Origin: a virus
Taxonomy: Duplodnaviria; Caudoviricetes
DNA length: 64,000 bases
Reading direction: 5' to 3' (one strand)
IMG/VR virus record: IMGVR_UViG_2934069824_000002
Coordinates: 14,437-78,436 of that record
Positions 8,794-28,262 of this stretch are shown here, piece after piece (within the stretch, counting starts at the first letter, position 1; every line of letters starts with the position of its first letter). Below the pieces are notes generated by a model, which was not told the DNA's origin, did no database searches, and saw only the letters and a list, made by a program, of their open reading frames with translations. The position numbers and the translations under genes are program-made.

Positions 8794-8806
8794 GGCGGCG
8801 GTCCTC

Positions 8807-9274: not shown

Positions 9275-9314
9275 GTGGGTCTCCTGAGTGATGTGGATGC
9301 CGGGCTGTCCGGCT

Positions 9315-10457: not shown

Positions 10458-10469
10458 CAGGGGTGCCTT

Positions 10470-12244: not shown

Positions 12245-12377
12245 GACGAGGGCTCTTCTCGTTCGTGGGAAGTGCCGGGGCGCTGATACGCCTCGGTGCG
12301 TCAGGGAGTCGGTCGACGCGCGCGCCCCTCCGGTGTTCGAGCACCGGAGGGAGCTGTTGGCCGGCTCCCGCTCTGCG

Positions 12378-12614
12378 TTATGGGGTTGTGGTGGGGCCCT
12401 TTCGAGTGGGCCCGTTGTGCTTCTTGATCGCCTGGTCGACGGTGGTCCAGCCCTTGCCGAGGTCCTTGGCGACTGCGTAGACGCTTCCGAGTTCGGCGAC
12501 GCCCTCGGCGAGAGCTGCCGCCCTTCGTTTGGCTGCGGCGTTCACCTGGGTCTGGAGCTGTTCGAGCAGCTCTTCCTCCTGGCGAACCCGGTCTCGCCAG
12601 GGTTTCGCTTCCAT
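12378..12614 (-). CDS. Small HTH regulator
   Basis: SVYAVAKDLGKGWTTVDQAIKK. Confidence 0.7.
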   Translation of the reverse strand: MEAKPWRDRVRQEEELLEQLQTQVNAAAKRRAAALAEGVAELGSVYAVAKDLGKGWTTVDQAIKKHNGPTRKGPTTTP

Positions 12615-12625
12615 CCCCCGGACCG

Positions 12626-12667
12626 TATCACTGGGGGGCAGTGATAGTCCAGTGTCACGCAACACTG
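12626..12667. promoter_or_regulatory. Palindromic operator(s) upstream of the small HTH gene
   Basis: TATCACTG-N5-CAGTGATA (12626..12646) and CAGTGT-N6-ACACTG (12650..12667). Confidence 0.55.
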
Positions 12668-13299: not shown

Positions 13300-13314
13300 C
13301 GCTCGTCTCCTCGA

Positions 13315-13836
13315 TCAGAACGGGGGTTCGTCCGAGTAGCCCGGGGCGGGCGCCGCCGGGGCGGCAGCTGCGGCGGGCGGCGGGCTGCTGGCCCACCCGC
13401 CGCCGGTCTGCTGCTGCTCGGGGGGCTTGGCCCCCGCCCACGCGTCGCCCTGCGCCTGGCCGCCGTTGCCGGACGGGTTCTTCGTCACCGCGGCCGACGC
13501 GCGCAGCAGCGACGGGCCGACCTCTTCGACGTCGATCTCGTACGCGGTGCGCTTCACCTGCTCCCGGTCCTCGTAGGAGCGCTGCTTCAGCCGGCCCTGG
13601 ACGATGACCCGCATGCCGCGGGCCAGGGTGGCGGCGGCGTTCTCGGCCTGCTGCCGCCATACGGAGCAGGTGAGGAAGAGGCCTTCGCCGTCCTTCCACT
13701 CGTTGGTCTGCCGGTCGAGGATGCGGGGGGTGGAGGCGACGCGGAACTTCGCGACGGCGGCACCGGCCGGGGTGAAGCGGAGCTCGGGGTCGTCGACCAG
13801 GTTTCCGACGATCGTGATGGTGGTCTCGCCTGCCAT
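13315..13836 (-). CDS. ssb: Single-stranded DNA-binding protein
   Basis: [23 protein letters not shown]...DEPPF, an actinobacterial SSB signature. Confidence 0.96.
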
Positions 13837-13868
13837 CAGGGGTTCTCCTTCTTGGCCTTGATCAAGCG

Positions 13869-14055
13869 GTGGACGTGCGCGTGGACGTGGACGCGGGATG
13901 TGGACGTGGACAACGTGGACGGCGTCCACATGGGCCCGTCTCGCGTCGCGGGAGTGAAATAATTCATTGTTATGTCCCTTTATGTACTAGTTAGGGGCGT
14001 GGCGGATTGAGGGACGGGACGACGTGGACAACCGTCCACGCGTCCACATGTCCAC
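13869..14055. repeat. Putative replication origin: GTGGAC/GTCCAC iterons around an AT-rich core
   Basis: 7 direct and 4 inverted hexamers flanking an AT-rich tract at ~13956..13993; directly downstream of the primase-helicase. Confidence 0.72.
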
Positions 14056-14060
14056 ATCGC

Positions 14061-16685
14061 TCACCCCGTCTGAACGCAGACCCGATCGCCCTCCACGAAC
14101 ACCCAGTCGCGGGTCTCCGCGACCTCGACGGACCGCCGCAGGAACGGCCTGTCGCTGCTCCTGAGTCGACGGTTCAGCTCGCCGAACGTGATCCCGCCGA
14201 CGGCCGACGAGTGCTTCTTCACGAGGCGGGCGATGCGCTCCAGGCTGCGGTCCGTGTCGTTCTTCGCCTGGTGCGAGCGGAGCTCCTGCGCGACCTTGGC
14301 GTCCTCCTCGCGCCGCCGGGCAGCCTCGGCCTCGCGGGCCGCTCGCTGGATCAGCGCGGCACGGACGGTGCACGAGGACTTCCAGACGATCTCGGCGAGT
14401 TCCCAGTCCTGCTCGGTCGCTTCGACGCGGCCGCCGTCGAGCAGCGCCAGGAGGGCGGTGATCTTCACCTTCATCAGGTTGGCGTGGCCGTCGAGCTCGT
14501 CGATCTCCAGCTCGCCGCGGTTCCGCGCGACGTGCTCGGCCCAGAGCATCCGCCGGATGCGCTCGGGGAGCACGATGTTGAGGTCCTCCATCGGCTGGAC
14601 GGAGGCGGGGTTGACCGGCAGTGGGCCGGGTGAGACGGGCGGCTCGTCGGGGATCGACGGGTCGGCGGCCCAGGCCCAGAGGAAGCGCTGCGGGGTGCCA
14701 GTGCTGGCGTCGGCGATGACCGGCATAGCGGTTGACGGCTGGAAGCCGACGACCATGCCGAGGCTGTAGGAGCCCGCCGCGACGTACCGGGTGCGCTCCT
14801 CAGAGGCGTTGGTCTGGCCGAGGGTCTCGCCGATCGCGGCACGGCGCAGCGTCTCGCCCAGCACGCTGCCGGCGCGCTCCGCCAAGCTGGCCAGGGTCTG
14901 GCCTTCGTCGACGTAGAAGTAGGCGTTGTGCCGGACCTGCTTCCGGACCTTCCGTGTGACGGGGTCGCCCTTGAGCGGGCCCTTGGCGTGGATCTCGCCC
15001 GTCTCCTCGTCGACCGTTCCCATGAACGCCTCGGCGATGCCCTCCCCGGACCCGATGGGGAGTCCGTCGCGGAACTCCGGGTCGATCGGGGGGAGCAGCG
15101 ACCGGGCGACCTTCGTGCCGATGGACTTGCCACCGCCGGATGCGGCGACGACCGCGACGAACATGTTCAGCGACGCGCGGCCGCCGATGCCCGACACGGC
15201 GGCGATGCGGTGCGACACCATCGCCGACATACGCGCGAGGAGCGAGAAGAACAGCACGTCGCCGCTGGAGCCTTCGGCGTGGGCGGCCAGGCGGATGTGC
15301 TGGAACACCGGGCGGGCGTTCCAGAACTCCTCGGGCAGGAGCCCGGGGTGGGCCTTCGGGTCCGGCTGGTCGTCGCCTGGGCGCGCGTGTTCCGGCTCCG
15401 GCTCGACCAGCTGGCCCGCCCCCCAGAGGTCTGCGGGCGGCGGCGGGCTGGAGCGTTCGGCGCGCGGCGGGCGGCACTGCTGCTTCACCCGCGCCAGGAC
15501 GGGGGAGGGCAGCGACCGCGCGGGCGAGGAGCACGGCTGGTCGTAGGCCGCGCGCAGCACGTCCCGCGCAGCCTCGCGCTCGTCCCCGTTGTAGTGCAGA
15601 TGCGCCCACAGGGTGGGGACGGTCAGCTTCCGCCCGGACGGCTGCTGACCGACCGGGAGCCCGGACCGCTCGGACCAGTTCACCGCGACGTGGTCGTCGC
15701 ACATGAGGCTGTGGTCGCTCTCGGCAGAGCCCTCCGCGCTGGCCGGGCGCAGCCACTTCTCGCGGCCGCCGGACGTGCCGCGGTACGTCCACCCGGCGGG
15801 CTCCAGGACGTCCCGGAAGGTGAGCATGGACGCGAGGATGTCGAAGACGCTGCTGCCGCCCGTGCTCGTCGCGCGGGCGCGCGGCGGCGGGACAGCGGGG
15901 CGCCCGTGCCGGGCGTCCTGGCGGGCGCGCTTCTCTGCGGCGGCCTTCTCCAGTGCCGCGCGTGCTGTGGGCTCCAGGGCGGCGGCCTGCTCGTGCATCA
16001 GTTGCAAGGGCACGGGATGTCCGCTGCCGGGCACGCTGCCCGTCGGCCGGGCCTGTCCGCCCTTCCTGTTGACCGTGCCGGGCACGCGCATCAGCCGGTC
16101 GAGGTTGCCGACCTGGGTGTCCCAGGTGCAGCCGTGCCCGTAGGCGGCGGCGCCGAGGATGGTTTGCACCGAGGCGGTCATCGCCTCGACGCGGGCCCGG
16201 TCTTCGGCGGTCTCCATGACGTACGGGGTTTCGAGCATCCAGACGGGGTTGAGGCCGCCGCCGGACAGCACCCAGCCGGTGGGCTCGGGGAGTCCGGACG
16301 ACGCCACGATCTGGCGGACGTGGTCGGCGTCGTCGGGGTGGGGCATCTCGTCGGGGCCGGGCTTGTGGCCCAGGCCGCCGAAGTCTCCGTCCGCCCAGAT
16401 GAAGGTGACGGCGTGCGCGAGGTCCTTCCCGCCGCGCCCCTTCTCGGGGTGCTCTCGCAGGGTGGTGACCTGCGCGTAGATTCCCTTCGGGTCGCGGGTG
16501 TCGAGCTGGAGGACGTAGTCGACGGCGGCGGTGATGCCCGCCTCGTTGGTGGTGAAGCGGCGACCGGCCCAGTCGGCGTCGCTGCAGATGCTGAGCAGCC
16601 CGGGGACGTTCTGGTACTGGAAGGCCAGGGACCGGTGGACCAGGTCCTTGTCGACGACGGCCGGGGTGGGGAGCGGTTCGGTCAC
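14061..16685 (-). CDS. Primase-helicase replication protein
   Basis: GTG at 16685; primase motifs WADGD, SGGG, RLMRVPGTVNRK; P-loop SGGGKS and Walker B YVDE. Confidence 0.85.
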   Translation of the reverse strand: MTEPLPTPAVVDKDLVHRSLAFQYQNVPGLLSICSDADWAGRRFTTNEAGITAAVDYVLQLDTRDPKGIYAQVTTLREHPEKGRGGKDLAHAVTFIWADGDFGGLGHKPGPDEMPHPDDADHVRQIVASSGLPEPTGWVLSGGGLNPVWMLETPYVMETAEDRARVEAMTASVQTILGAAAYGHGCTWDTQVGNLDRLMRVPGTVNRKGGQARPTGSVPGSGHPVPLQLMHEQAAALEPTARAALEKAAAEKRARQDARHGRPAVPPPRARATSTGGSSVFDILASMLTFRDVLEPAGWTYRGTSGGREKWLRPASAEGSAESDHSLMCDDHVAVNWSERSGLPVGQQPSGRKLTVPTLWAHLHYNGDEREAARDVLRAAYDQPCSSPARSLPSPVLARVKQQCRPPRAERSSPPPPADLWGAGQLVEPEPEHARPGDDQPDPKAHPGLLPEEFWNARPVFQHIRLAAHAEGSSGDVLFFSLLARMSAMVSHRIAAVSGIGGRASLNMFVAVVAASGGGKSIGTKVARSLLPPIDPEFRDGLPIGSGEGIAEAFMGTVDEETGEIHAKGPLKGDPVTRKVRKQVRHNAYFYVDEGQTLASLAERAGSVLGETLRRAAIGETLGQTNASEERTRYVAAGSYSLGMVVGFQPSTAMPVIADASTGTPQRFLWAWAADPSIPDEPPVSPGPLPVNPASVQPMEDLNIVLPERIRRMLWAEHVARNRGELEIDELDGHANLMKVKITALLALLDGGRVEATEQDWELAEIVWKSSCTVRAALIQRAAREAEAARRREEDAKVAQELRSHQAKNDTDRSLERIARLVKKHSSAVGGITFGELNRRLRSSDRPFLRRSVEVAETRDWVFVEGDRVCVQTG

Positions 16686-16960
16686 TGCTGCACCGCCGGG
16701 AAGTAGTAGCTGCCGGTCGGGCGGCCGACGCACCGGGACTGCCGGGGGCAGACGTGTGGTGCCGAAGCGGGGCCGGCGGGGTGGATGTGCTGGCAGTCGC
16801 AGAACGGGCAGGCCACGACGAGGTGCGTCTGGAGCTCGCCGGTGTGGGCGTCCCGGTAGGCGACGAGGCGGGCCGCGGCGGCGACCATGCCGAGCCGGGC
16901 CGTCGGTGGCCGGGGCTCGGTGTCCTTCCCGAAGATGGGGAGGGTGGTGGTGCTGGTCAC
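16682..16960 (-). CDS. Zn-finger protein
   Basis: CPFC...HIH...C. Confidence 0.65.
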   Translation of the reverse strand: MTSTTTLPIFGKDTEPRPPTARLGMVAAAARLVAYRDAHTGELQTHLVVACPFCDCQHIHPAGPASAPHVCPRQSRCVGRPTGSYYFPAVQQ

Positions 16961-17056
16961 GAACGTGCTCTCTTCTACGAGCGGGGCTGGTGGTGTTCGT
17001 GAGGCGCGTGCCGCCCGGGCCGCAGATACGGCCCGGGCGGCGTTGCGCTCCCGGGG

Positions 17057-17497
17057 TCAGCCGCCGGGCGTCCGCAGGGAGTTGAGCATCCGCGCGTGAT
17101 CCGCGGTCATGATGCGGAGATGCTGCTGCACGTCGCCGACGATGAACGCCCACCGGGTTCCGGCCGGGACGTGCACCTCAATGTGCTTCGCGGAGAGGTA
17201 GAAGTGGGAGGCGATGGCCTGCCCGAGGCCGAACCCGCAGCGCAGTGCTTCCTCGCCGAGGCGGACGACTGCGGTGTGGCAGTCGACGGAAGGGTTCGTC
17301 TGCTTACGCAGGTCCTCGCTGACGTCGCTGCTTCGGTCGTAGCGGCCGGTGAGGTCGACGGTGACGACGAGCCGCACCTCGGGGACCGGCACCACGACGG
17401 GCGGCGCCACCGGCGCGGGCTCCGTGGCCGGGGCCGGGAGGGAAGCGAGGCGGACGGGGTGCTTGACCGGCCACTGGCCGACGGTGTGGTCGCTCAT
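17057..17497 (-). CDS. Hypothetical protein
   Basis: ATG at 17497 coupled to the upstream stop. Confidence 0.6.
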   Translation of the reverse strand: MSDHTVGQWPVKHPVRLASLPAPATEPAPVAPPVVVPVPEVRLVVTVDLTGRYDRSSDVSEDLRKQTNPSVDCHTAVVRLGEEALRCGFGLGQAIASHFYLSAKHIEVHVPAGTRWAFIVGDVQQHLRIMTADHARMLNSLRTPGG

Positions 17498-17715
17498 GCT
17501 GCCTTCTCCTTCGGCGTGGCCTGCTGGCGCAGTGCGGTGACGGCGGGGGCGAGCGCGGCGCGGATGGTGGCCCGCTGCTCGTCCGACAAGGGGGGCGCGG
17601 CGTCGACGATGCGCCGGACGCGCGCCCAGTAGGCGGCGTCGCCGTGCTTGGCGTGGGCCGGGCGGCCGGGGACGGTGAGGTCCCCGGCCGTGCCGGTGGT
17701 CTGCTTGTCGGTCAC
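17494..17715 (-). CDS. Hypothetical protein (APPLS.EQ motif)
   Basis: VDAAPPLSDEQRATIR; coupled on both sides. Confidence 0.65.
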   Translation of the reverse strand: MTDKQTTGTAGDLTVPGRPAHAKHGDAAYWARVRRIVDAAPPLSDEQRATIRAALAPAVTALRQQATPKEKAA

Positions 17716-18662
17716 GCGCGGGCCTCGCTGTCCATCTGGCCGCGCATCGTCCGCAGCGCGCTGGTGAGGGCTTCGAGCTGGCTGATGGTGGAGTCGACGC
17801 CGTTGGCGTCGAGCCCGAGGACGTCGAGGTCACCGGCGGCGAGGTACACCTTCGGGCCGCTGGTGTAGGACTCGTCCTTGCCGAGGCTGGCGGTGATGCG
17901 GATGTCGTCGGCGGGGTGGCCGTCGGACAGGGTGATGGTGGTCTCGTGCCCGGCGTGCTCGATGTAGCTGCCGCCGCCCTCGTGCTCGTCGTACTGGTGG
18001 GTGATGCACTCGGCGACGTTGCACCACGGGTAGTGGCCAAGGTCGGCCAGCGGGCTGGGGAGCTGGGGGACGGTGCCCTGGGCGATCGCGGCCAGGTGGT
18101 CGCGCTGGGCCCGGAGCCGGGGGAGGAACTGCTCCAGGTCGGCGGTGAGCTGGTCGGCTCCGGCGACGTCGAGGTCGGCGTCTGCGCTGGGCTGTGTGAA
18201 CACGGCGATCCGGGCGGTGGGGTCGCCGGGCTTCGGGTCGTCGAGGTGGTAGATCTCCGAGCTGATGAGGGCTCCGCTCGCACCGGCGGCGGTGACGGAG
18301 TACGTCTCGGTGCCGGGTTCCAGCGGGGCCCGGCCGTCGACGATGTCGGCGAGCACGGCCACGGCGTCGAGGTGGCGGTGGAGCTCAGCGACCCGGGCCC
18401 GGGTCTGCGCGGCGGTGAGGTTCAGGTCGAGCCATCCGACGCTGATGTCGACGCCGTCGGGGCCGTCCTCGGCCATGACGTTGGCGAGGAGGACGCAGTC
18501 GCCGTACCCGTCGACGGTGGGGGCCTCGACGTAAGCGGTGAGGTGCATCGAGTGGTCGCCGGTCTCGGCGCACCAGGCGTAGGCCCCGCACGGCGCGGCG
18601 GCGGCCGGTTCCGTCTGGCCGAGGTTCAGCTGTCGGGTGTCGGTGGCGTCTGAGATACTCAT
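17712..18662 (-). CDS. Protein with repeated WC..H (DUF6907-like) domains
   Basis: YAWCAETGDH and YPWC..C..H units each followed by a helical segment. Confidence 0.65.
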   Translation of the reverse strand: MSISDATDTRQLNLGQTEPAAAAPCGAYAWCAETGDHSMHLTAYVEAPTVDGYGDCVLLANVMAEDGPDGVDISVGWLDLNLTAAQTRARVAELHRHLDAVAVLADIVDGRAPLEPGTETYSVTAAGASGALISSEIYHLDDPKPGDPTARIAVFTQPSADADLDVAGADQLTADLEQFLPRLRAQRDHLAAIAQGTVPQLPSPLADLGHYPWCNVAECITHQYDEHEGGGSYIEHAGHETTITLSDGHPADDIRITASLGKDESYTSGPKVYLAAGDLDVLGLDANGVDSTISQLEALTSALRTMRGQMDSEARA

Positions 18663-18685
18663 GGTGGATCGGCCCTCTCTGCTAT

Positions 18686-18973
18686 TCACGTGGTCTGGTT
18701 GGTCGGTTCGCTCGAAGCCGTCGCAGTTACCGCTGCGGCGGCTTCGCTGGTTTCCGGGGAGATGTGGAGGACGCGGTGCAGGTCCGCCGTGATCGCCCGG
18801 TAGGCCCTGCCTGCCCGGATGACCTGGCACGGGAACTCGCCGGCCTTGGCCAATGCGTACGCGGTCGAGCGCCCCAGGCCGAAGGCGCGCGCTGCCGTCT
18901 CCAGGCCCACGACCGCCGGAAGCTCCAGCAGCTCAGCGCGGGTCAAGGAACGCCGGTCAGTGACTGTTGTCAT
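18686..18973 (-). CDS. Excisionase/Cro-like HTH protein (RDF candidate)
   Basis: LPAVVGLETAARAFGLGRSTAYALAKAGEFP; divergent from the repressor. Confidence 0.8.
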   Translation of the reverse strand: MTTVTDRRSLTRAELLELPAVVGLETAARAFGLGRSTAYALAKAGEFPCQVIRAGRAYRAITADLHRVLHISPETSEAAAAVTATASSEPTNQTT

Positions 18974-19097
18974 TATTCGTGACACTCCTTGCGGAAGTTG
19001 CTTCCTGGGGAAGTGGTCCGAGTCTGAGCTGTGGTCCAGTCGCTGTCAAGCTGTGTTGTCTTGTGCGAGCACAGAAAGCGTGCGAGCGTCTCCCCTG

Positions 19098-19131
19098 TGA
19101 CACAGGATCCGGGCTAGGGCATCCTGTGTCA
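19098..19131. promoter_or_regulatory. Operator of the prophage A switch
   Basis: TGACACAGGAT-N12-ATCCTGTGTCA; a further half-site TGACACAGGA overlaps the repressor start at 19171. Confidence 0.7.
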
Positions 19132-19169
19132 GATAGTCCACACACAGAGATCAGGGGAGTCTTGCCGTC

Positions 19170-20036
19170 ATGACACAGGAGACCAGCGATGTGAGCTGGC
19201 CTGCGCGCCTCGCGCTGGCGATCGCCAGCGAAGTGCGTCGGCACCGCCAAGCGCAGCGCCTGAGTGCTCAGCAGCTCTCCGACCGCTGCGCGGAGCTCGG
19301 CATGCCCATCCAGCGCTCTGTGCTGGCGAACCTTGAGAGCGGTCGCCGGACCACGGTGACCGTTGCTGAGGTGCTCGTGCTGGCGGAAGCGCTTGAAGTG
19401 GCGCCAGCGGCGCTCATGTTCCCAGCGGGCTACAGCCAGGAAGTGGAGGTTCTGCCATCAGTCGAAGTCAGTCCACTTCGCGCGGTCGATTGGCTCGGCG
19501 GCTACACGAAGCTGAGCGGTTTCCCGAAGCATCGATCGAATTCTCCGCTGGTTGCCTTGAGACGTCATCGGATGATCGTGTCGGAGCTCCGTACAGCACT
19601 TCATGACCGCGAAAAGCAGAGGGCTGAGGCTCTGTTGGCGCGACGTCGGGCAACTGACGTGCAGCGTCGGCAGCAGCTTAAGCAAGTGCTGGTGCTTGAC
19701 CTTGAGGAGAAGATCGCGAACTCCGCTCCAGAGGCGGCGGACCTACAGGATGAGCTGGAGAAGCGGCGCGTTGAAGTAGCAGCTGCACGAGCGGAAGCTG
19801 CGCAAGCGGAGCAGGCCGCTGAGTTCATGGCCTACAAGGTGGAAGCTGGCGAAGACGTCATTTCGCTTCTTGCTGGGCGACTAGGTAAAGCTCAGAAACA
19901 AATCGAGGAAAACGGGTGGCTGGCGCCACCGTTGCCTGAAGATGTATGGCGAATTGTGCAGCAACGCGCCGATCTGGAGACCTTGGCAGGGATTCGTACC
20001 CCGCCTGCTCTTCTTCGCGATGGGGACCCGCTTTGA
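19170..20036 (+). CDS. XRE-family immunity repressor with coiled-coil C-terminus
   Basis: LSAQQLSDRC...RSVLANLESGRR HTH; position next to the integrase. Confidence 0.85.
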   Translation: MTQETSDVSWPARLALAIASEVRRHRQAQRLSAQQLSDRCAELGMPIQRSVLANLESGRRTTVTVAEVLVLAEALEVAPAALMFPAGYSQEVEVLPSVEVSPLRAVDWLGGYTKLSGFPKHRSNSPLVALRRHRMIVSELRTALHDREKQRAEALLARRRATDVQRRQQLKQVLVLDLEEKIANSAPEAADLQDELEKRRVEVAAARAEAAQAEQAAEFMAYKVEAGEDVISLLAGRLGKAQKQIEENGWLAPPLPEDVWRIVQQRADLETLAGIRTPPALLRDGDPL

Positions 20037-20059
20037 GTGTGCCAAGCGCGTAGCGATTT

Positions 20060-21559
20060 TTACCGCTTCCAGCGCGTCTCGACTGCTTCGTAGTCGAAGT
20101 ACCCGCCGTCCGGCATACGGCCCTGGCGCGGCGGGCGCAGCGTCACCTCCAGCAGGGCCTGCAGCACCTTGCGCTGCCGTCCCAGCTCGCACGCTTCCCA
20201 CGCCGCCCGCACGTCCTTCACGCCGACCAGGCCGACGAGCGGGTCCTTCACCGCAGCCCGGGCCAGCTGCGCCGTCACGCCCTCCAGCTGGGCGCGCGCG
20301 ACGTCGGAGCCTTCGGTGAACTGGGCCATGCTGATCTGCCCGGACCCGAACATCGCCGCGAGGTCGGTCAGCCGCCGGCGGATGGTCTCGCTCTCGACCT
20401 GGAGCTTGCCCACGTTGATGCCGTCCGGGGTGGGCCCCAGCAGGTCGACCGCGTCCGGCTTCGACAGCCGCTCGACGAGCAGGTCCTGGATGTACGCGTC
20501 GAGGACCGCCGCGTTCCGGCCGCCGCCGTGGTTGTCCTGGCACCGGTAGCTGGGCGCCCCGGATCCGCCGACCTTGGTGTTGCGCACGGTGGTCTTGCAC
20601 CCCAGTCGCCCGCACTTGTAGATCAGGGAGCCGAACCACTTCACCTCGGAGCCGGTGGTGGTCACCCGGTTCGGGTCCGTGAGGATCGCGACGACCGCCC
20701 GGAACTTCGGCTCGGGCACTGCCGGCTCCCACAGGCCGCGGCCGATCTCCTCGCCCTGGTAGATGGCGATGCCTGCGTTGCGCGGCCGGAGCAGCAGGTC
20801 CCGTGCCGCGTTGTGCGTGATCGGTCGGCCCGTGGTGGACAGCAGCCCCTTGGCGGCGAGCCACCGCGCCCAGCCCTTCACCGACCCGGCGGCCAGGATC
20901 ATGTCCGTGCCGGCTTCGAGGGCTGCTCCCTCCTCGGGGACCAGCTTGGTCATGTCGAGCACGGGCACGTCGATCTCCTCGTCGGTGCCCTTGATCGCCT
21001 TCTTACGGGTCTCTCCGGTGGGCATGCCCCACCCGAACGGCCTAAGCCCGCCGCCGAACTTTCCGGCCTTCGCCTTCTGGAGTCGGGCACGGGCCACGCG
21101 CTCGGCCTTGTGCTCGGACTCGTGCCGGGCGACGGCTCCGTGGATGCGGGCGGTCATCCGGCCGGACGATGTGGAGAGGTCGAGCTCACCGGCCTGGCAG
21201 GTGTGGGTGTCGACGCCGCGCCGCTGGCTGAGGTCGATGTACTCCTCCAGCTCGGTGGGGGAGCGGTGCAGGCGGTCGGTGTGCCAGGCGACGACGACGG
21301 TGGCGGTGCCGAGTTCGAGGTCGGCGAGCATCCGGCGGTAGTCCTTGCGGGGCTTCCCGCTGTACGCGGAGAGGTCGTTGTCGACGTACACCTCGACGAC
21401 TTCCCAGCCGCGTGACTCGGCGAGCGCCTCGCAGTCTTCGCGCTGCCGGTCGACGCCGAGGTGCGCGCCGGTCCGGTCCTGGCTGATGCGGACGTAGATG
21501 ACGGCGCGGGGCGTCCCGCCGTTGGCGACGGAGACGGCGCTTCGCAGGCGGCGGCTCAT
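20060..21559 (-). CDS. Large serine integrase A
   Basis: YVRIS catalytic motif, DRLHRS, recombinase domain, CxxxxC...C Zn ribbon; start MSRRL. Confidence 0.95.
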   Translation of the reverse strand: MSRRLRSAVSVANGGTPRAVIYVRISQDRTGAHLGVDRQREDCEALAESRGWEVVEVYVDNDLSAYSGKPRKDYRRMLADLELGTATVVVAWHTDRLHRSPTELEEYIDLSQRRGVDTHTCQAGELDLSTSSGRMTARIHGAVARHESEHKAERVARARLQKAKAGKFGGGLRPFGWGMPTGETRKKAIKGTDEEIDVPVLDMTKLVPEEGAALEAGTDMILAAGSVKGWARWLAAKGLLSTTGRPITHNAARDLLLRPRNAGIAIYQGEEIGRGLWEPAVPEPKFRAVVAILTDPNRVTTTGSEVKWFGSLIYKCGRLGCKTTVRNTKVGGSGAPSYRCQDNHGGGRNAAVLDAYIQDLLVERLSKPDAVDLLGPTPDGINVGKLQVESETIRRRLTDLAAMFGSGQISMAQFTEGSDVARAQLEGVTAQLARAAVKDPLVGLVGVKDVRAAWEACELGRQRKVLQALLEVTLRPPRQGRMPDGGYFDYEAVETRWKR

Positions 21560-21903
21560 GAGCGGTCGCCGTGGTCCGGGGCCTGGCACTGCCGCAGGGC
21601 GAAGTCCCAGTACCAGGAACTGCCGTTGACGTAGAGGCGCGTCCAGCCCGCGCGGATGCGGTCCACAGGGAGGCCGGGCATCTGGACCTCGACGTGCCGC
21701 CCGTCGGTCATTCCGAGGTCGAAGGCGAACCTGCCCTCGCCGTAGTCGGCGAGGGGGGTGCGGTCGATCGAGGCCACGGCCAGGCCGTGCTCCTTGGCCA
21801 GGTCGGCGATGAACGTCTGGATGTTCTCGGCGGCCTGCTGCTCGGTCGCCCCTTCGACGGGGCCGGAGCCCGGGTTGATGAACGTCATCTTCCGAGTGTC
21901 CAT
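21556..21903 (-). CDS. Hypothetical protein coupled to the integrase
   Basis: ATGA overlap with the integrase start; protein-like sequence (RLYVNGSSWYW). Confidence 0.6.
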   Translation of the reverse strand: MDTRKMTFINPGSGPVEGATEQQAAENIQTFIADLAKEHGLAVASIDRTPLADYGEGRFAFDLGMTDGRHVEVQMPGLPVDRIRAGWTRLYVNGSSWYWDFALRQCQAPDHGDRS

Positions 21904-21930
21904 CACTAAGGGTGTCTCTGCCAGAGTTTC

Positions 21931-22172
21931 GGGAAGACGACGCTCCTCGCCAGCCTGCTGGGCGCGGTCGGGGTGAACGAGCGGATCGTGCTCGCCGAGG
22001 ACTCCGCCGAACTGCGGCCGGACCATCCGCATGTGGTCCGCCTGGAGTCCCGTCCCGCCAATCAGGAGGGAGCGGGCCGGGTGACTTTGCGAGATCTGGT
22101 GCGGCAGGCACTGCGCATGCGGCCCGACCGGCTGGTGGTCGGAGAGGTGCGGGGCGCTGAAGTCACCCAGCT
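21931..22172 (+). pseudogene. tadA: Internal fragment of host TadA/CpaF-family ATPase flanked by two att junctions
   Basis: [11 protein letters not shown]...[12 protein letters not shown]...[23 protein letters not shown]; similarity stops abruptly on both sides. Confidence 0.9.
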
Positions 22173-22245
22173 GACTGGTAAGAAACCACCAATACAAGCG
22201 CTACGTGATTACCCCTGGTCAGAGGCCTTCCTGCCTCAAGCATGA

Positions 22246-22277
22246 CTGAACCCCGGCGCCGTCGCGCCGGGGTTCAG
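22246..22277. terminator. 14-bp perfect stem-loop just inside prophage B
   Basis: CTGAACCCCGGCGC-CGTC-GCGCCGGGGTTCAG, directly after the TGA (22243..22245) that ends tadA read-through. Confidence 0.6.
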
Positions 22278-22496
22278 CAGCCGCTCCCCGCCCTGCCGGG
22301 GGAGGAAGAGGGGGAGGGCTGATCGGGGCCCCTCCATCAGAGGGGAGCGTCGGCGGCCCAGTCGAGTCGTCGGCGCCGACTTCACTCGAACGAGTGAGCG
22401 AATTCGACAGCTTCACCGTACACGCAGCGTGCTTGATCGGCAGATTTAAGGTCAACCCTAAAGACAAACGATCATGGCCCCGGTGAGCGTTGCCGG

Positions 22497-22736
22497 GTGT
22501 ACCACGAGCCGCTGCCTCCCGACCGCGTCCGGGCCCGGCGCCTGCAGATCGCGGACAACATCCGCGCAGCCCGCATCTACACGGGCTACACCCAGGAGGA
22601 GGCCAGCATCCGGGCAGGCATTTCGCTCGACAGCTACAACCGGATCGAGCAGGGGCACGCGTCCCCCAGGATCGACACCCTGATCAAGATTGCGGACGGC
22701 ATCGGCGTGGAGCTCGAGACCTTCGTACGCAGGTAG
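22497..22736 (+). CDS. XRE-family HTH regulator
   Basis: TQEEASIRAGISLDSYNRIEQG...TLIKIA. Confidence 0.85.
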   Translation: MYHEPLPPDRVRARRLQIADNIRAARIYTGYTQEEASIRAGISLDSYNRIEQGHASPRIDTLIKIADGIGVELETFVRR

Positions 22737-22765
22737 GCCCCCGGCCACTGCTCGGTCGGGGGCCT
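22735..22765. terminator. Hairpin between convergent genes
   Basis: aggcccccggcc...ggtcgggggcct. Confidence 0.6.
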
Positions 22766-22773
22766 GCCTGTGC

Positions 22774-23874
22774 CTACGCCCTGCTGGGCTGGACGACCAG
22801 GTGCGGATCGCGCAGCCACACCTGATGGCCGCGGGGTGTCACGGTCAGGCCGAACTGGTCGGCGTCGGGTCGGCCGGCCTCTTCGTACTCCCGCCAGGCC
22901 CGCTCGATCTCCTCCCACAGGAAGCCGGGCCCGTACTGCAGCACCTCCTCGCCGGTGGCGGCCATGACTCCCGCCCCGTCCACGCTGCTCACCCAGACCC
23001 GGGCACCGTCGGCGGTCTCGTGGCCGGAGACCCGGACACCGGGCATCCTCGCCCCGGCGTACAGAGCGAACCCGAGGTCGAGAATCCGCGCGGGGTCCAG
23101 GCCTGCGGCCCGGGCCCGACCGCTGCCCGTGATCTCGTGGTGGACCGGGCGGTGCGAGCGCATCGGCATGTACATCGCCGAGCCGCAGAACGGGCCGACT
23201 GCGGTCCCGTCGCCCTGGACGTGGAGTTGGACCAGCGCACCGGACCAGAAGTCGCGGGCGAGCGGGGCCACGATGACCCCGCCGGGCCGGACCTGCCCGA
23301 CGAGCGCGTACGGGATGTATCGCAGCGCGCACGTGGCGATGACGCGGTCGACCAAGCCCATGCCGGGGATCGCCTCCGCACCGTCGCCGACGTGGAGGTG
23401 CGGCCGGTATCCGGATCCGGCGATGGCATCGGCGGCCTGCTGCGCCAGCACGGGGTCCACCTCGACGCTGTAGACCTGCTCGTCGCCGAGCCGCTCGCTG
23501 AGCAGCGCGGCAACGTACCCGGTCCCGGTGCCGATCTCGAGGACCCGGTGACCGTCCTCGACTCCGAGGAGCCCGAGCATCCGGGCCACCATCGACGGCT
23601 GCGAGTTCGACGACGTCGCGATGCCGGGTCCGCCCACGGCCCCGTCGTCGAGCTGGGTGACTACCGGCTCGTCGCTGTTCACCAAGGCCAGCCAGTCGTC
23701 TGTCCCTACCACCGGCTCGCACCGGTCGGGGAGCTGACGCCAGATGTCCGCCGGCACGAACTGACTGCGGGGAACGGCCTCCCAGACCTGCCGCCAGCGG
23801 GCATCGAGCAGCCTGCGATCGGCGAGGTCCTGGACGAGGGCCGGGTACGTGCCGGTCTCCTGCGCCGTGCTCAC
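22774..23874 (-). CDS. PIMT-like (protein-L-isoaspartate O-methyltransferase family) RiPP methyltransferase
   Basis: TSSNSQP, VLEIGTGTGY SAM motif, C-terminal extension LWEEIE...FGLTVT...VWL; GTGA overlap with the precursor stop. Confidence 0.88.
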   Translation of the reverse strand: MSTAQETGTYPALVQDLADRRLLDARWRQVWEAVPRSQFVPADIWRQLPDRCEPVVGTDDWLALVNSDEPVVTQLDDGAVGGPGIATSSNSQPSMVARMLGLLGVEDGHRVLEIGTGTGYVAALLSERLGDEQVYSVEVDPVLAQQAADAIAGSGYRPHLHVGDGAEAIPGMGLVDRVIATCALRYIPYALVGQVRPGGVIVAPLARDFWSGALVQLHVQGDGTAVGPFCGSAMYMPMRSHRPVHHEITGSGRARAAGLDPARILDLGFALYAGARMPGVRVSGHETADGARVWVSSVDGAGVMAATGEEVLQYGPGFLWEEIERAWREYEEAGRPDADQFGLTVTPRGHQVWLRDPHLVVQPSRA

Positions 23875-24005
23875 TGGGCGCGCTTCTGCGGGCGGCTGCC
23901 GTCGGGGGACGGGGCAGGTGCCGGGTCCGGCTTCCACGGCGTGTCGGACGGCTGCCCGCCGTGCTTGCCGTCGTCGGCCTGCTGGGGCGTCTGGGGATTC
24001 GTCAT
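23871..24005 (-). CDS. 44-aa putative RiPP precursor (MTNPQTPQQADDGKHGGQPSDTPWKPDPAPAPSPDGSRPQKRAQ)
   Basis: Hand translation; translationally coupled on both sides; two Asp-Gly motifs. Confidence 0.75.
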   Translation of the reverse strand: MTNPQTPQQADDGKHGGQPSDTPWKPDPAPAPSPDGSRPQKRAQ

Positions 24006-24214
24006 CGGTCTGCCCTTCGTCCAGGACCGCCGGGTGCGGCGGCCAGGTGGTCCGCAGGGGCGACGCGCTGTCGGGCCTCACGCCACTTCCGGCCGAGCTT
24101 GGAGGCGGTGGCGCACGCCGTGCCTGCTCGGCATCCGGCGCAGGTCCTGGTGTGGCGCAGCCACTTCCTGTACGCCGCGTCGCCCGGTGCGGTCTGTAAG
24201 GTCTCGGCGCTCAT
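24002..24214 (-). CDS. Small HxxxCxxC-C protein
   Basis: YRKWLRHTRTCAGC....C; AGGGG RBS. Confidence 0.65.
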   Translation of the reverse strand: MSAETLQTAPGDAAYRKWLRHTRTCAGCRAGTACATASKLGRKWREARQRVAPADHLAAAPGGPGRRADR

Positions 24215-24360
24215 GGGTGCTCGCCCCCTACGGGATGGGTTGCGGCACCGGTCGATCCTGGCGGGGGGACCGGTGCCGCTGGTTACTGGGATCACGCTAG
24301 GTGCCCGCGCGATCACACCCCAGGGGCGAACCCCACCACTCTAAGCGGCCGCACCCCACC

Positions 24361-24385
24361 GAGGTAGGGCGCTACGTCCTACCTC
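24361..24385. promoter_or_regulatory. Palindrome upstream of the methyltransferase operon
   Basis: GAGGTAGG-gcgctacgt-CCTACCTC. Confidence 0.5.
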
Positions 24386-25589
24386 ACAGGGCCGGGTCAA
24401 CGCCGAGCCGCGACGCGAGGCCGCGAAGCGAGGAGTTCCGCCGGCGCTCGGCCTCGAGCATCTCCCGCACCGTCGCCGCCGCCCCGGCCTGGAACCGGAT
24501 CCACTCCGGCTGATCGGTCTCCACCTCCAGGAGCAGCGTCAGCGCACCCTCGTTGTCGCCGGTCTGGTAACGGGCCTGCGCCACGTCCACCCGGTACGAC
24601 GCCGAGTGCACCGGACGGCTGATGTTGCCGAGGTGGACATCGGCGGCGGCGTCCAGCGCAACGTTCGGCATGCCGTCGGTGCCAGCCAGGGCTGCATTCA
24701 CCTTCTGCGTCAGCACGTCGGTCACGCTGAACGCGGTCCCGTACGCGCGGACCGGGCCGGACTGCACGGCAGCACCCTCGGCCAACCCGAGCAGGTAGAG
24801 CGCCTCCTCGTGCTGGTCGGCACGTGCGTACGGCGTCGCCGCTGCGATCAAGAGATTTCCGTAGACGGCGAGCTGGTCCGCTGTCGCACCGCGCCGCCGC
24901 GGCTCGAGCTGGTCTGCCTTCCGTTCCGCGATGTCCCGCGCCTGCTCCCACCGGCCCTGACGCAAAAGGACCCAGGACAGCGTCGATACGCCCATGCCCT
25001 CAAGCAGCGGATCGGACGCCCGCGCGGCGGCAGACAGTTGCTTCTCCACCGCGGTGTACGCCCAGTCGGGATGACCGGCCTGGGTAGAGAGGGACGCGGC
25101 CAGCTGGTAGGCGAGGGCGAGACTCCGCCACACGCTCTCGGTGTCGTGCTGGCGCGCGGTGGCGCGGCCGTCCCGGAGCAGGCCCGGCAGTACGCCAGCG
25201 AGCTCGGAGTAGCCACCGGTCCAGTACGTGTCGGTGGCGGCCGTCACCTGCCGCGCCCACTCGGCAGGGCTCGGCGGGTCCTCGAGGTCCTCGTCGCCCA
25301 GAATGCCGGGCAGTGACCCGGGATCCTGGATCGCGTCGCGCATGGCCAGGAGGCCGCCGTCAGGGGGAAGTTCGCTGGTCACGGTGGGCTGTCCTACGAG
25401 GCGCTCGAGCTGGACGTCCAGCGCCCGCGCGATACTGCGCAGAGTGTTGATCCGCGCGGCCTGCCGTCGGTTCTGCTCAAGCTTCCGGATGGTGTCGATG
25501 GACACTCCGGACCGGTCGGCCAGCGTTTCCTGGGTGATGTCGCGGAACTCTCGCAACGCGCGGATGCGGTCGCCAATGGACGTATTCAT
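24384..25589 (-). CDS. XRE-HTH plus TPR-like transcriptional regulator
   Basis: N-terminal TQETLADRSGVSIDTIRKLEQ followed by ~300 aa of helical repeats. Confidence 0.88.
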   Translation of the reverse strand: MNTSIGDRIRALREFRDITQETLADRSGVSIDTIRKLEQNRRQAARINTLRSIARALDVQLERLVGQPTVTSELPPDGGLLAMRDAIQDPGSLPGILGDEDLEDPPSPAEWARQVTAATDTYWTGGYSELAGVLPGLLRDGRATARQHDTESVWRSLALAYQLAASLSTQAGHPDWAYTAVEKQLSAAARASDPLLEGMGVSTLSWVLLRQGRWEQARDIAERKADQLEPRRRGATADQLAVYGNLLIAAATPYARADQHEEALYLLGLAEGAAVQSGPVRAYGTAFSVTDVLTQKVNAALAGTDGMPNVALDAAADVHLGNISRPVHSASYRVDVAQARYQTGDNEGALTLLLEVETDQPEWIRFQAGAAATVREMLEAERRRNSSLRGLASRLGVDPAL

Positions 25590-25634
25590 GTGGACCCCCG
25601 CCAGAAGGTTGAATCCACGGTACTCCGAAACGCA

Positions 25635-25670
25635 GAAATGCCCCCCACCGCCGAAGCGGTGGGGGCGTTC
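25635..25670 (-). terminator. Intrinsic terminator ending the late operon
   Basis: GCCCCCACCGC-TTCG-GCGGTGGGGGGC-ATTTC on the minus strand. Confidence 0.75.
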
Positions 25671-26306
25671 TCACGGGCGGCGGCGGGTGGGGTCCAGGGC
25701 GAGGGCGAGCGGGCTGGGTGTGCTGGCGGGTTCCTCCGGCTGCGACGGTGTGGTCCGCCGGCAGACGAGGGCGTCCGGGTCGGTGGGCGGCGGCTGCAGG
25801 GTGTACCCGTCCGGGCAGGTCTGACCATCGGCACCATCGCGCCCGTCAACGCCGTCCTTCCCGTCCTTGCCGACCCCGTCCTTCCCGGCGGGCCCTGGCG
25901 GGCCAGCAGGCCCCGCGGGGCCCGTCGGGCCGGGGACCACCGAGTCGGCCCCGGCCTGACCGGCCGCGCCGGACGGGCCGGGGATCGGCGTCGCCGCTGC
26001 CCCGTCGCGTCCGTCTTCCCCAACTCCGGCCTTTCCCGGAGGACCGGACGAGCCCGGCGGACCGGGTGGGCCGGACGGGCCGACGAGGCTCTCGCCCGGC
26101 TCGCCGCGCGTCCCCGGCGGCCCGGCGACGGGGGACGCCCCGAGGCGCTCGACCTGCTGCGCCAGCTGGTCCCGGGCGAGGTTCGCCGCTCGGAGGTCGG
26201 AGGCGAGGTCCTGCACCGTGAGGATCGCCGCCCCGGCGAGCAGCGCGCCCAGGAGCGTGAGCAGGTTGCCGAGCCAGGGCCGGGCGTGCTCGCGTCGGTG
26301 CGTCAT
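25671..26306 (-). CDS. Membrane-anchored collagen-like protein of the lysis cassette
   Basis: N-terminal TM, short coiled coil, Gly-X-Y repeats, CPDGY...C. Confidence 0.8.
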   Translation of the reverse strand: MTHRREHARPWLGNLLTLLGALLAGAAILTVQDLASDLRAANLARDQLAQQVERLGASPVAGPPGTRGEPGESLVGPSGPPGPPGSSGPPGKAGVGEDGRDGAAATPIPGPSGAAGQAGADSVVPGPTGPAGPAGPPGPAGKDGVGKDGKDGVDGRDGADGQTCPDGYTLQPPPTDPDALVCRRTTPSQPEEPASTPSPLALALDPTRRRP

Positions 26307-26596
26307 GCTCCGGCCCCCTTCACGGTCATGGCGAGGTACGGGAGCAGCGCGACCACGACGGTGATGACGACGCCGATCATCCACCGGCGGGTCGCGATGA
26401 GCTTGTCGGTGTCCTTCTCCCGTTGCGTCTCCAGCGCGGTCACGCGGGAGGCGATCTGCTCTTTCTCGATCGTGTAGACGTCGCGCGGGACGACGGCGTC
26501 GAGCCGCGCGTTCAGGTTCCCCAGGTCCTCGCGTACGTCGTCGCGCAGGGACTGGATGAGCCGCCCGAGCTCGCCGTTCGACGGCTCATCAGCCAT
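26303..26596 (-). CDS. Coiled-coil protein with C-terminal TM (lysis cassette)
   Basis: MADEPSNGELGRL...RRWMIGVVITVVVALL. Confidence 0.75.
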   Translation of the reverse strand: MADEPSNGELGRLIQSLRDDVREDLGNLNARLDAVVPRDVYTIEKEQIASRVTALETQREKDTDKLIATRRWMIGVVITVVVALLPYLAMTVKGAGA

Positions 26597-26612
26597 GGGT
26601 GGTGCTCCGTTC

Positions 26613-26831
26613 TCAGATGCTCGCCGGGTCCTTGGCGGCGGGCAGCGTGGACGCGGTGCCCTTGCGGCCGAGCCGCCCGGCCACCCACGACTTAGCCGAC
26701 GCGGCGAGCAGCGCGACCGGGGCCGCCCACCACACCGGCACATCAGCCAGCTCGACGACGGCCAGGCCGAGCGCGGCCTCCGCCCCCGTCCACGCGGACC
26801 GCTCGACGAGGTCCAGCAACAGTCTCTGCAT
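26613..26831 (-). CDS. Holin (r1t-like)
   Basis: DLVERSAWT, two TM segments; directly after the endolysin. Confidence 0.8.
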   Translation of the reverse strand: MQRLLLDLVERSAWTGAEAALGLAVVELADVPVWWAAPVALLAASAKSWVAGRLGRKGTASTLPAAKDPASI

Positions 26832-26870
26832 GATCAATCTCCTAGGGGTTGGTGAAGCGAGTTGGTGGGG

Positions 26871-27746
26871 TCAGACGTTGGGGACCTTGAGCCGGTCCCA
26901 CGAGCCCTTGCCGGGGATGCCGTCGGCGGCCGCGCCGGAGTAGCCGCACTTGCGCTGCCAGGCGGCGTACGACTTCCGGTCCGCCTCCGACCACCTCGGG
27001 CCCGGGCCGACCGCGTACCGGCCGCAGCCCTCGGCGGCCAGGCGGCGGCCCATCGCGGTGACGACCGGGCTGTTGCGGCCGGCCTTGAAGAACGCCGCCC
27101 CGGGGAACGGCTCGTACCGCGGCTTCGCCGGCGGCTCGGCCGGGCCGTCGGCGGAGCTCCCGAGCCGCTTGCCGATCCGCGTGCGCATCGAGTTCATGGT
27201 GAATCCGCGCGGATCGACCTTGCCCGGCTGCCACTCCAGGTGGCCGAGCACGGACCGGGGCCCCCAGCCGTGCGCCCGGCAGACGGCGGCGGCCGCGCGC
27301 TCGATCGCGAGCAGCTGCTCGGCCGGCCACGGGTCCTCACCGTCGCCGAGGTTCACCGCTTCGAACCCGTAGAAGTGGCGGTTCCCGTCGGTGTTGGCCT
27401 CGTTGTCCGGCGGGAGCTCCCTCTCGGCGATGACGGCCTGGAGGACGTCGTCGTCGCCGGACCCGGCGTGGTTCGCGCGCCCGTGGCCGACGAGGTACAC
27501 GGTGCCGTCCTTGGCGATGACGCCGTGGCAGAGCGGCCCGGGCAGGGCGGAGTGGCCGTTGTAGCAGAGCTCCACGGAAGAGGCGGTTCCCGACGTCACG
27601 GTGTGGTGGATCATCACGCCGTGCATCGGGCCCACCGGACCCTTGTGGTTGCGGCTGTTGGTGCGCCAGCTCCGGTGTTCGACGACGTGGAGGCCCTCGT
27701 CGCGGAGGGCTTTCAGAAGTTTGTCGGCGGAGAGGAATGTGGCCAT
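26871..27746 (-). CDS. Endolysin: N-acetylmuramoyl-L-alanine amidase plus peptidoglycan-binding domain
   Basis: IHHT, RANHAG, GHLEW...KVDP motifs; C-terminal ADGIPG..SW. Confidence 0.93.
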   Translation of the reverse strand: MATFLSADKLLKALRDEGLHVVEHRSWRTNSRNHKGPVGPMHGVMIHHTVTSGTASSVELCYNGHSALPGPLCHGVIAKDGTVYLVGHGRANHAGSGDDDVLQAVIAERELPPDNEANTDGNRHFYGFEAVNLGDGEDPWPAEQLLAIERAAAAVCRAHGWGPRSVLGHLEWQPGKVDPRGFTMNSMRTRIGKRLGSSADGPAEPPAKPRYEPFPGAAFFKAGRNSPVVTAMGRRLAAEGCGRYAVGPGPRWSEADRKSYAAWQRKCGYSGAAADGIPGKGSWDRLKVPNV

Positions 27747-27810
27747 GTAGGCCCTCCAGACATGACGACGCCCCGGCCGTTGCGGCTCGGGGCGGGGGTG
27801 AACGGGTGGA

Positions 27811-28251
27811 TCAGACGGCTTCGTAGACCGTGAGGAGCACCGACGAGTAGACGTTGAGGTTCATGCCGGTGGCGAGGGTGACGACGAGCTTCGCGGTGTG
27901 GTTGCCCGCCGCAGGGATGACCTCGCGGTACGTCTGCGGGGTGGACCCGCGGTCGCCCGTTGTACCCGGCCCCTGCTGGTAGACGGCGAACTCCCCGACG
28001 CCGGCCCCGTCGATGAAGAGGCGTCCGGAGGACAGGCCGCCGATCGTGGTTGTCGGGTCGAAGTCGCACACGATCGTGGCGGTGATCACCGCGCCTGCGG
28101 TCTGGGTGGTGAAAGGGATGCTGATGCCGGGCGCGTCCGCGTTGGTCAGCGGCCCGGTAAGCGCGGCGGTCTGGGTGCCAGCCCGGTAGGTCTTGGGCTG
28201 CAAGCGGTTGAGCTGGTCGGCGGTCACCCGCTGTCCGGCGAGGATCGGCAT
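27811..28251 (-). CDS. Minor tail protein
   Basis: MPILAGQRVTADQLN start; beta-rich; follows the large tail protein. Confidence 0.72.
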   Translation of the reverse strand: MPILAGQRVTADQLNRLQPKTYRAGTQTAALTGPLTNADAPGISIPFTTQTAGAVITATIVCDFDPTTTIGGLSSGRLFIDGAGVGEFAVYQQGPGTTGDRGSTPQTYREVIPAAGNHTAKLVVTLATGMNLNVYSSVLLTVYEAV

Positions 28252-28262
28252 GATGCCCCCTT

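Follow-up and report, generated by a model that had tools for sequence, protein, structure and literature searches.

How does a short piece of a bacterial pilus gene come to lie between two prophages, and does the interruption serve a purpose? The question is raised by a 64,000-nucleotide stretch of viral DNA (hereafter the window; positions 14,437 to 78,436 of IMG/VR record IMGVR_UViG_2934069824_000002), in which a fragment of a host tadA/cpaF gene, coding for part of a TadA/CpaF-type ATPase, separates two prophages (A and B), each with its own large serine integrase (IntA and IntB). The initial annotation, made from the sequence alone, had read the locus as one host gene split into three at two separate bacterial attachment sites (attB). 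This anatomy is borne out, the evidence being lysogens that carry only A or only B. We conclude that the window very probably holds a true double lysogen, produced by ordinary insertional inactivation at a dispensable landing-pad gene and not by a regulated switch.

Results

A host tadA gene interrupted at two sites

The record is 78,436 bp long and of source class provirus, and the window is its right-hand 64,000 bases, starting 14,436 bases in. The record starts inside prophage A or at the edge of that prophage, and its last base is the first base of the IntB ATG on the minus strand. The host piece occupies 21934..22169 on the plus strand, begins at the GKTT of Walker A, and matches positions 154-228 of the 370 in Pfam T2SSE (PF00437; 74.5 bits, E = 1.6e-22), the sole match to this family in the whole 78,436-bp record (domains were assigned by Pfam and prophage gene families by PHROGs). 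Frame +1 of 21901-22248 opens with a stop, continues as an open tadA frame, and ends in QA followed by the stop at 22243-22245. Searching the 78-residue piece against one genome per species returned 80 loci, among which the best matches, 39 Streptomyces tadA genes, have 85-96% protein identity to it. Comparison with intact and singly occupied tadA genes placed the crossovers at AA 21934-21935 and CA 22168-22169, giving 236 bp for what had been annotated as ~240 bp of host DNA. The left junction falls within Walker A, at the Gly-Lys of GxGKT, and the right junction three codons after GEVRGAE, just past Walker B, both as the initial annotation had placed them.

An intact orthologue, in the relative L004, scores 227 bits against T2SSE and has both the Walker motif sequence and the NTGH His box. 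It lies in the gene order CbiA/ParA (ParA/MinD-like), T2SSE, two T2SSF, DUF4244 (Flp-like pilin), and TadE-like; the Tad-locus neighbours (TadZ, TadB, TadC, Flp pilin, and TadE) are therefore those of this relative, not of the window's own genome. A second complete T2SSE gene is present elsewhere in all Streptomyces genomes searched for this family (14 of 14).

Singly occupied genes show where the piece belongs. In A-only lysogens tadA is unbroken from Walker A onwards, and in B-only lysogens it is unbroken over model positions 3-228. The complementary outer parts are present in every related lysogen examined: in relatives of A the 5′ part ends at model position 154-159, 32-44 kb away, and in relatives of B the 3′ part begins at position 229, 40-46 kb away. 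Both sites have a 2-bp crossover, a dyad-symmetric phage attachment site (attP), and hybrid left and right prophage ends (attL and attR). In three A-type lysogens all four downstream tad genes are present; 2 of the 12 alignments of these genes contain one stop each, the query open reading frames (ORFs) being over-extended at their 5′ ends.

Independent contigs bear on whether the double junction is an artefact, arising either because reads from an A-only and a B-only strain were joined into a chimera or because one of the phages itself carries a tadA piece, as might be suspected of a computational provirus cut-out whose host piece is shorter than a read pair. One public sequencing run (X1) contains 99% of the sampled words of 20000-24000, and its contig of 9,825 nt (depth 197) covers 20000-23172 with 0 differences and bridges both junctions; it comes from another assembler, has even depth, and shows no loose end at either junction. 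Two runs from other organisms (X3 and X7) carry an A-type prophage whose intA differs from that of the window by 62 and 49 bases in 1,447, together with a tadA piece that has 4 differences from the window over 289 and 261 nt. Their contigs continue past 22173 and 22170, respectively, into LAALNTGH-coding sequence, with CAG as the crossover codon; they are A-only lysogens with site B empty in a nearly identical host gene. Furthermore, contig X2, from a soil metagenome, shows 21 differences from the window over 22167-23034 (a relative of phage B, 97.6% identical), and directly before the base matching 22167 it has a 30-base stretch that resembles other B-type P arms and mirrors the P′ arm of the window, that is, the attP form. 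Taken together, these contigs identify the 236-bp piece as host DNA, set the start of phage B at 22170, and exclude a stitching error at the double junction. With A-only and B-only lysogens placing the piece in the host gene, and with attP forms of both phages that lack tadA sequence, an artefact is scarcely credible. IntA is more diverged between X3/X7 and the window (3.4-4.3%) than the host piece is (1.4-1.5%), so that the prophages of X3 and X7 may be separate acquisitions.

Prophage A and its site in Walker A

Prophage A fills 1..21933 of the window and 14,436 bp more of the record to the left, at least 36,369 bp in total; A-type relatives at the Walker A site span 32-44 kb. Its PHROGs matches include terminase large subunit, portal, head protease, tape measure, the phrog_5313 tail protein, endolysin, and a primase/polymerase. 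IntA (499 residues; 20060..21559, minus strand) matches Pfam Resolvase (PF00239; 108.4 bits) and Recombinase (PF07508; 22.6 bits, cut-off 21.1), the latter family giving no match to IntB at E 0.001 or better. The zinc-ribbon model matches neither integrase; both are ~500 residues long, and annotated serine integrases can be aligned to them from end to end. Their N-terminal YVRISQD (IntA) and YCRLSY (IntB) presumably represent the serine-motif region. The two proteins had been called clearly divergent, and their identity is indeed 30% over 493 aligned residues. Among 50,697 deposited phage records no close relative of either integrase was found: all are below 60% identity, the best matches reach 29-37%, IntA is below 40% to any deposited phage integrase, and IntB reaches at most about 30%.

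We searched IntA (E 1e-60 or better) and IntB against 401 Streptomyces genomes. IntA gave 18 places in 15 genomes, among which nine places, in nine genomes, hold relatives of 64-80% identity. Eight of these nine directly adjoin a tadA part that begins at residue 272-274 (GKTTLL lies at 274), and a contig ends 95 bases from the ninth; none of the nine distant relatives (46% identity or less) adjoins tadA. The left junction of the window recurs in 3 of the 80 tadA loci (L029, L039, and L047), where the frame upstream of GKTT is replaced by window-like sequence and the 5′ part of the gene (positions 3-154) lies 35.3, 40.7, and 44.2 kb from the 3′ part. Five further genomes have tadA split at site A, with gaps of 32-38 kb.

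Alignment of attL and attR from three genomes with the intact gene places crossover A at the AA of GGG-AAG, the Walker A Gly-Lys codons; in one genome (G001) the overlap of attL and attR is reduced to AA alone. The attR of prophage A (21911..21958, plus strand) consists of the P arm, the crossover AA at 21934-21935, and the B′ arm in tadA. Its P arm reads GGTGTC, 17 nt, then AA, with mirrored arms 17 nt from the centre. Among viral contigs we examined 51 of 54 IntA relatives: 22 of the 51 loci have the attP form, in which this left arm leads into AA and its mirrored counterpart on the right closes with G(A/C)CACC, and 6 have the attR form, with a junction to tadA.

The N terminus of IntA is 375 bases from the tadA piece. 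In this interval lies an ORF of 110 residues (21556..21888, minus strand) that matches no Pfam family and is missing from the A-type prophages of X3 and X7, where 30 or 438 other letters stand instead. Its absence from otherwise 96% identical prophages in two organisms points to a recent gain or loss beside attP. At its left end, in the part of the record to the left of the window (L128:2084-4225), prophage A carries a DUF6879 protein, an HTH_31/DUF5753 regulator, and a GmrSD_C-type nuclease-like protein, which may be defence or moron genes.

Prophage B and its site past Walker B

Prophage B occupies 22170..64000, 41,831 bp up to the record end, and its PHROGs matches include terminase, portal, major head protein, tape measure, phrog_5313, endolysin, and an XRE-TPR regulator. 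IntB (501 residues; 62495..64000, minus strand; Pfam Resolvase PF00239, 80 bits) has its ATG as the last triplet of the record. Relatives of IntB were found in 7 of the 401 genomes. In all five with 58-63% identity, the stretch immediately upstream of the integrase gene codes for tadA residues 351-459/463, and the two with 39-44% identity are not beside tadA. In the five B-type genomes the 5′ part of tadA (positions 3-228) lies 39.9-45.8 kb off in four and on a separate contig in the fifth.

The attL of prophage B (22145..22195, plus strand), aligned to five B-type attL/attR pairs, comprises the B arm in tadA, the crossover CA at 22168-22169, and the P′ arm. B-type arms have mirrored outer motifs, GTGT[A/T]GGTGC and GCACCAACAC, mirrored inner hexamers, and a 4-base centre. 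The crossover corresponds to the first two bases of the codon after GAEV-(T/V), and this central pair varies between phages (CA, TC, or GA) and in each lysogen equals the bases of the host codon. Contigs in the attP form show the same variety, the host codon variants being Q/H, E/D, and S (window 22166-22171; L097-L106; L144-L152). Since it matches a variable codon of the host, the dinucleotide may determine the alleles at which lysogeny is possible. Among 14 viral relatives of IntB, seven are in the attP form with mirrored arms, two have a junction to tadA, two end at the integrase, and three, all distant, have unrelated sequence upstream; the two tadA junctions are attR junctions, in records whose integrases have 84% and 91% identity to IntB.

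The two prophages are related phages with different integration modules, judging from their sequences. Their late regions are collinear, with 65-94% nucleotide identity in 11 blocks of at least 150 nt that total 12.5 kb, and their early regions, integrases, and left-end cargo are unrelated. Each has a complete complement of structural and lysis genes, with terminase, portal, head, tape-measure, tail, and endolysin genes from the same PHROG families in both, and each also has regulators and replication genes; their immunity presumably differs, which would make them heteroimmune. The prophages stand in tandem and co-oriented, with collinear late genes at record 5090-23416 and window 26871-48900. 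Given this shared orientation and gene content, homologous recombination between them could remove a hybrid phage of unit length.

The first gene of prophage B (22497..22736, plus strand) codes for a small helix-turn-helix protein of the XRE type (Pfam HTH_3, E = 2.6e-11). The left-end cargo that follows (22774-25589) comprises a 435-residue protein with a PCMT-type methyltransferase domain and a 401-residue XRE-type regulator (phrog_5823). Between the regulator and the lysis genes, an ORF on the minus strand (25671-26384) has long Gly-X-Y collagen-like repeats.

The stop and the hairpin beyond site B

As annotated, the truncated tadA frame meets its first in-frame stop, a TGA at 22243..22245 (plus strand), 25 codons into phage DNA. 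Immediately downstream, 22246..22277 forms a 14-bp stem without mismatch, closed by a 4-nt loop. The hairpin is terminator-like and folds with -34.4 kcal/mol (z = -5.96; 0 of 200 shuffles as good). It has no T tract, and a scan of 21500-22800 for consensus promoters and terminators returned nothing. Terminators without such a tract are common in high-G+C actinomycetes, and the hairpin may terminate despite its lack.

The stop is incidental: a single change (22245 A>G) makes it a sense codon in the 97.6% identical relative X2, and its distance varies among relatives (script comparison). Of 6 integrated B-type prophages, 4 have a comparable hairpin, of different sequence, 35-75 nt into the P′ arm. 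Such hairpins also stand beside attP in unintegrated phage contigs, so that the structure is a phage feature and not a tadA device.

A motif, GGTCAG(A/G/C)GGCCT, was seen ~35-50 nt inside the element-side arm in phage B (22217-22228) and in elements at a third insertion site, site C, described below (L133/L134, near 3290-3310, and L143). Its carriers, phage B and the site-C elements, are otherwise unrelated.

Further elements in the same gene

A third serine-integrase site (C) lies right after the His box NTGHEGGC/NTGHAGGC, ~40 bp past site B. In two viral records with an A junction (L133 and L134; 3180-3420 in each), tadA is cut a second time after NTGHEGGC or NTGHAGGC. The insert is 9-10 kb long, has 59-66% G+C, and ends in its own serine integrase of 516 residues with resolvase, recombinase, and zinc-ribbon domains, which has 27-31% identity to the N terminus of IntA and no tblastn match to IntB. 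Two viral records with a B junction (L143 and L151) are also cut at site C, ~40 bases after the B crossover and upstream of the integrase, so that site C is occupied together with A-type prophages in two records and with B-type prophages in two. A further record (L140, over its whole length) was also assigned to the site-C observations.

In one genome (G006:C7:15000-93100; L125, L126, and L127) tadA lies in four collinear pieces. The first insert is an A-type prophage at Walker A. The second, a 17.8-kb element inserted after NQEGAG, has a weak tyrosine-recombinase match (21.4 bits, below the cut-off) and an asparagine-synthase-like gene. The third, a 20.4-kb element near the His box, codes for two TniQ-domain proteins and an AAA_23 protein and may be Tn7-like. 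There are at least four insertion points within ~280 bp of tadA, used by three serine-integrase lineages and other elements.

We counted 24 distinct occupied tadA loci: among genomes 10 of the A type and 5 of the B type, among viral records 6 and 2, respectively, and the window itself. Of these 24, 6 are multiply occupied. Viral records are biased to multiple occupancy, because the host piece is kept in a provirus call only when it lies between two elements. In the unbiased sample of 401 genomes, site A is occupied in 9, site B in 5, and both together in none; the interrupted state is not the species norm.

Conservation of the attachment sites

The attB sites had been said to lie in conserved motifs. 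This holds for the protein and fails for the DNA: although the motifs are conserved, sites A and B reach into variable codons. In 32 intact Streptomyces genes, hand-picked from the 80 loci, the DNA of the attB sites (20-50-base windows centred on each site) ranks, depending on window size, at the 19th-47th percentile of the gene for A, the 11th-37th for B, and the 62nd-85th for C. The idea that attB is the best-conserved DNA of tadA was consequently rejected, as A and B rank low to middling.

Discussion

An explanation for the double lysogen

In the explanation that we favor, two related, presumably heteroimmune temperate siphoviruses of Streptomyces would have entered the gene for the TadA/CpaF-type ATPase of a tadZ-tadA-tadB-tadC-flp locus, each by means of a large serine integrase of its own and at an attB of its own, the two sites being 234 bp apart. 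IntA would recombine an attP of the form GGTGTC-N17-AA-N17-G(A/C)CACC with the Walker A Gly-Lys codons, and IntB would recombine a different dyad-symmetric attP with a site three codons past Walker B, the crossover falling on the first two bases of a variable codon. Cutting tadA in three would knock out the ATPase and with it the pilus; loss of function is to be expected because the P-loop itself is cut. Excision by serine integrases is precise, and tadA would be rebuilt only if both prophages left, each with its own integrase and directionality factor. At least three lineages of serine integrase, and other elements besides, would use the gene as a landing pad. Once it is broken, additional insertions would cost nothing, which would explain stacking. 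The hairpin at 22246-22277 would be the phage's own terminator-like element beside attP, and in the prophage it may also stop read-through from the tad operon.

Several points weigh against this explanation. The outer flanks of tadA fall outside the record, so that the three-piece state of this very genome rests on its relatives. X1 may be the source sample itself, and its contig would then be a second assembly and not a second biological sample. Loss of ATPase function, reversibility, and the absence of regulation are all read from sequence. No directionality factor or host-type regulatory element was identified, neither having been systematically searched for. The downstream tad genes retained in lysogens fit a recent or reversible insertion as well as they fit a switch. 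Finally, a mere landing pad leaves the convergence of unrelated recombinases on tadA unexplained, and since sites A and B are not the best-conserved DNA of the gene, there is room for a selective reason.

Such a reason could be that loss of the Flp/Tad pilus helps the elements, for example by stopping the DNA uptake that would delete them; the double insertion would then be a by-product of several lineages sharing one profitable target, which is compatible with the anatomy. Published work offers a frame for this. Distant serine recombinases often share a target gene, and their targets are strongly enriched in DNA competence genes (PMC10083194, in the parts seen); natural transformation of the actinobacterium Micrococcus luteus depends on tad genes (PMC4322843); and mobile elements may gain by silencing DNA uptake, a conflict for which a framework exists (PMC4774983 and PMC12378983, likewise in part). 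The crowding of at least four insertion points into ~280 bp, by three serine-integrase lineages and other elements, would suit such sabotage, and so would the modest conservation of sites A and B, since conservation alone does not explain the choice. Yet the second complete T2SSE gene in 14 of 14 genomes and the low occupancy (9 and 5 of 401 genomes) speak against it. So does the host's biology: to our knowledge, no search here having addressed it directly, natural transformation by way of the tad locus is not established in Streptomyces. We regard sabotage as the driving force, though reasonable, as unlikely. A simpler account of why tadA is targeted would be that the gene is dispensable and that, once it is cut, more insertions come at no cost. 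A bolder version, in which tadA is a contested docking strip where at least three unrelated serine-integrase lineages (A, B, and the 9-10 kb low-G+C element) and a Tn7-like and another element each hold their own sites within ~280 bp, silence a DNA-uptake pilus of the Flp/Tad type and so protect themselves from deletion by transformation, with the dinucleotide of phage B as a lineage-specific key to lysogeny, is somewhat harder to believe.

The initial annotation had favored either of two functions. Tad/Cpa pili serve as phage receptors in Caulobacter, and a cut tadA, which is certainly what the lysogens have, could guard them from superinfection. Stacking argues the other way: the phage that arrived second entered a cell whose tadA was already broken, as did the late arrivals in the A + C, B + C, and triple cases, which means that late arrivals did not need this ATPase for entry. 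The cut could conceivably exclude other phages. With 6 of 24 occupied loci stacked and no positive evidence in its favor, knockout of a receptor as superinfection exclusion is very unlikely. The other proposal was a two-key switch, in which TadA would come back at a set stage through excision of both prophages, in the manner of skin in sigK and SPbeta in spsM. The precision of serine-integrase excision and the retention of the downstream tad genes in lysogens suit it, and genes with multiple elements are rebuilt in development in heterocyst-forming cyanobacteria (PMC4874684 and PMC11249958, in the parts seen). The occupied state, however, is far from fixed (A 9, B 5, and both 0 of 401 genomes), close relatives of the host carry A alone, both elements are complete phages, for which excision normally ends in lysis, and regulatory elements of a host type are missing from what was identified, within the limits of the search noted above. 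Rare occupancy by complete, lytic-capable phages, with nothing positive on the other side, makes a switch most improbable. We therefore retain the landing-pad explanation.

Comparison with known systems

The mechanism of integration is the known one, and the multi-site hotspot is undescribed. Serine-integrase phages of Streptomyces and mycobacteria that integrate within ORFs (phiC31, phiBT1, TG1, phiJoe; Bxb1 in groEL1; MabI/MabJ of Mycobacterium abscessus) resemble prophages A and B in having integrases of ~500 residues with an N-terminal resolvase domain, a dyad-symmetric attP, a 2-bp crossover, and a disrupted host ORF; those of M. abscessus have short common cores (PMC8092301, in part). 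These phages differ in that both integrases here have less than 40% identity to deposited ones, the target is tadA, and two phages share one gene. Switch elements (skin in sigK, SPbeta in spsM, A118/phi10403S in comK) are likewise serine-recombinase prophages or remnants inside a gene that can be precisely restored, the SprA/SprB excision system of SPbeta being a case in point (PMC5499854, in part). In their species the switch elements are fixed or common, and they excise in step with host development, whereas occupancy here is 1-2% and no such tie was seen.

Heterocyst elements of cyanobacteria (in nif, hup, and other genes) share the feature of one gene cut at several places by elements that each bring a separate serine or tyrosine recombinase; multiple elements occur in 10 of 87 interrupted genes, and nifD carries up to four (PMC4874684, in part). 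They are mostly small, non-phage, fixed, non-lytic, and excised in terminally differentiated cells, unlike the two complete phages in an actinomycete described here, for which no developmental trigger is known. The closest parallel in target choice is the clustering of serine recombinases on genes such as the comM-type Mg chelatase (Durrant et al. 2022, PMC10083194, in the parts seen), where distant recombinases converge on one gene and competence genes are over-represented. There, many recombinases use one site; here, three lineages use three sites in ~280 bp that can be occupied together. The words 'T2SSE' and 'secretion' are absent from the main text of that paper, whose supplements may list the target. 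In the main texts of the literature searched, supplements aside, we found neither tadA/cpaF as an attB nor a Streptomyces prophage in an Flp-pilus gene, and the main texts of mycobacterial prophage surveys have no mention of tadA or pili. With the same scope, three serine-integrase sites in ~280 bases, their co-occupation, and the match between the B dinucleotide and the host codon were not found in print.

Implications

The two integrases, three with that of site C, come with new, mutually distinct attP and attB sites, and the sets are candidate orthogonal integration tools for Streptomyces. The gene that contains the attB sites is present in most Streptomyces, a genus in which integration vectors are the main means of genetic work. 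The match between the B crossover dinucleotide and a variable host codon may offer a simple, testable determinant of which host lineages become lysogenised. More broadly, an actinomycete pilus ATPase gene is a repeated target of several element lineages at separate sites, where elements pile up. This extends the known bias of serine recombinases toward competence-type genes to the Tad/Flp system, and gives a locus at which to probe whether elements gain from silencing such a gene.

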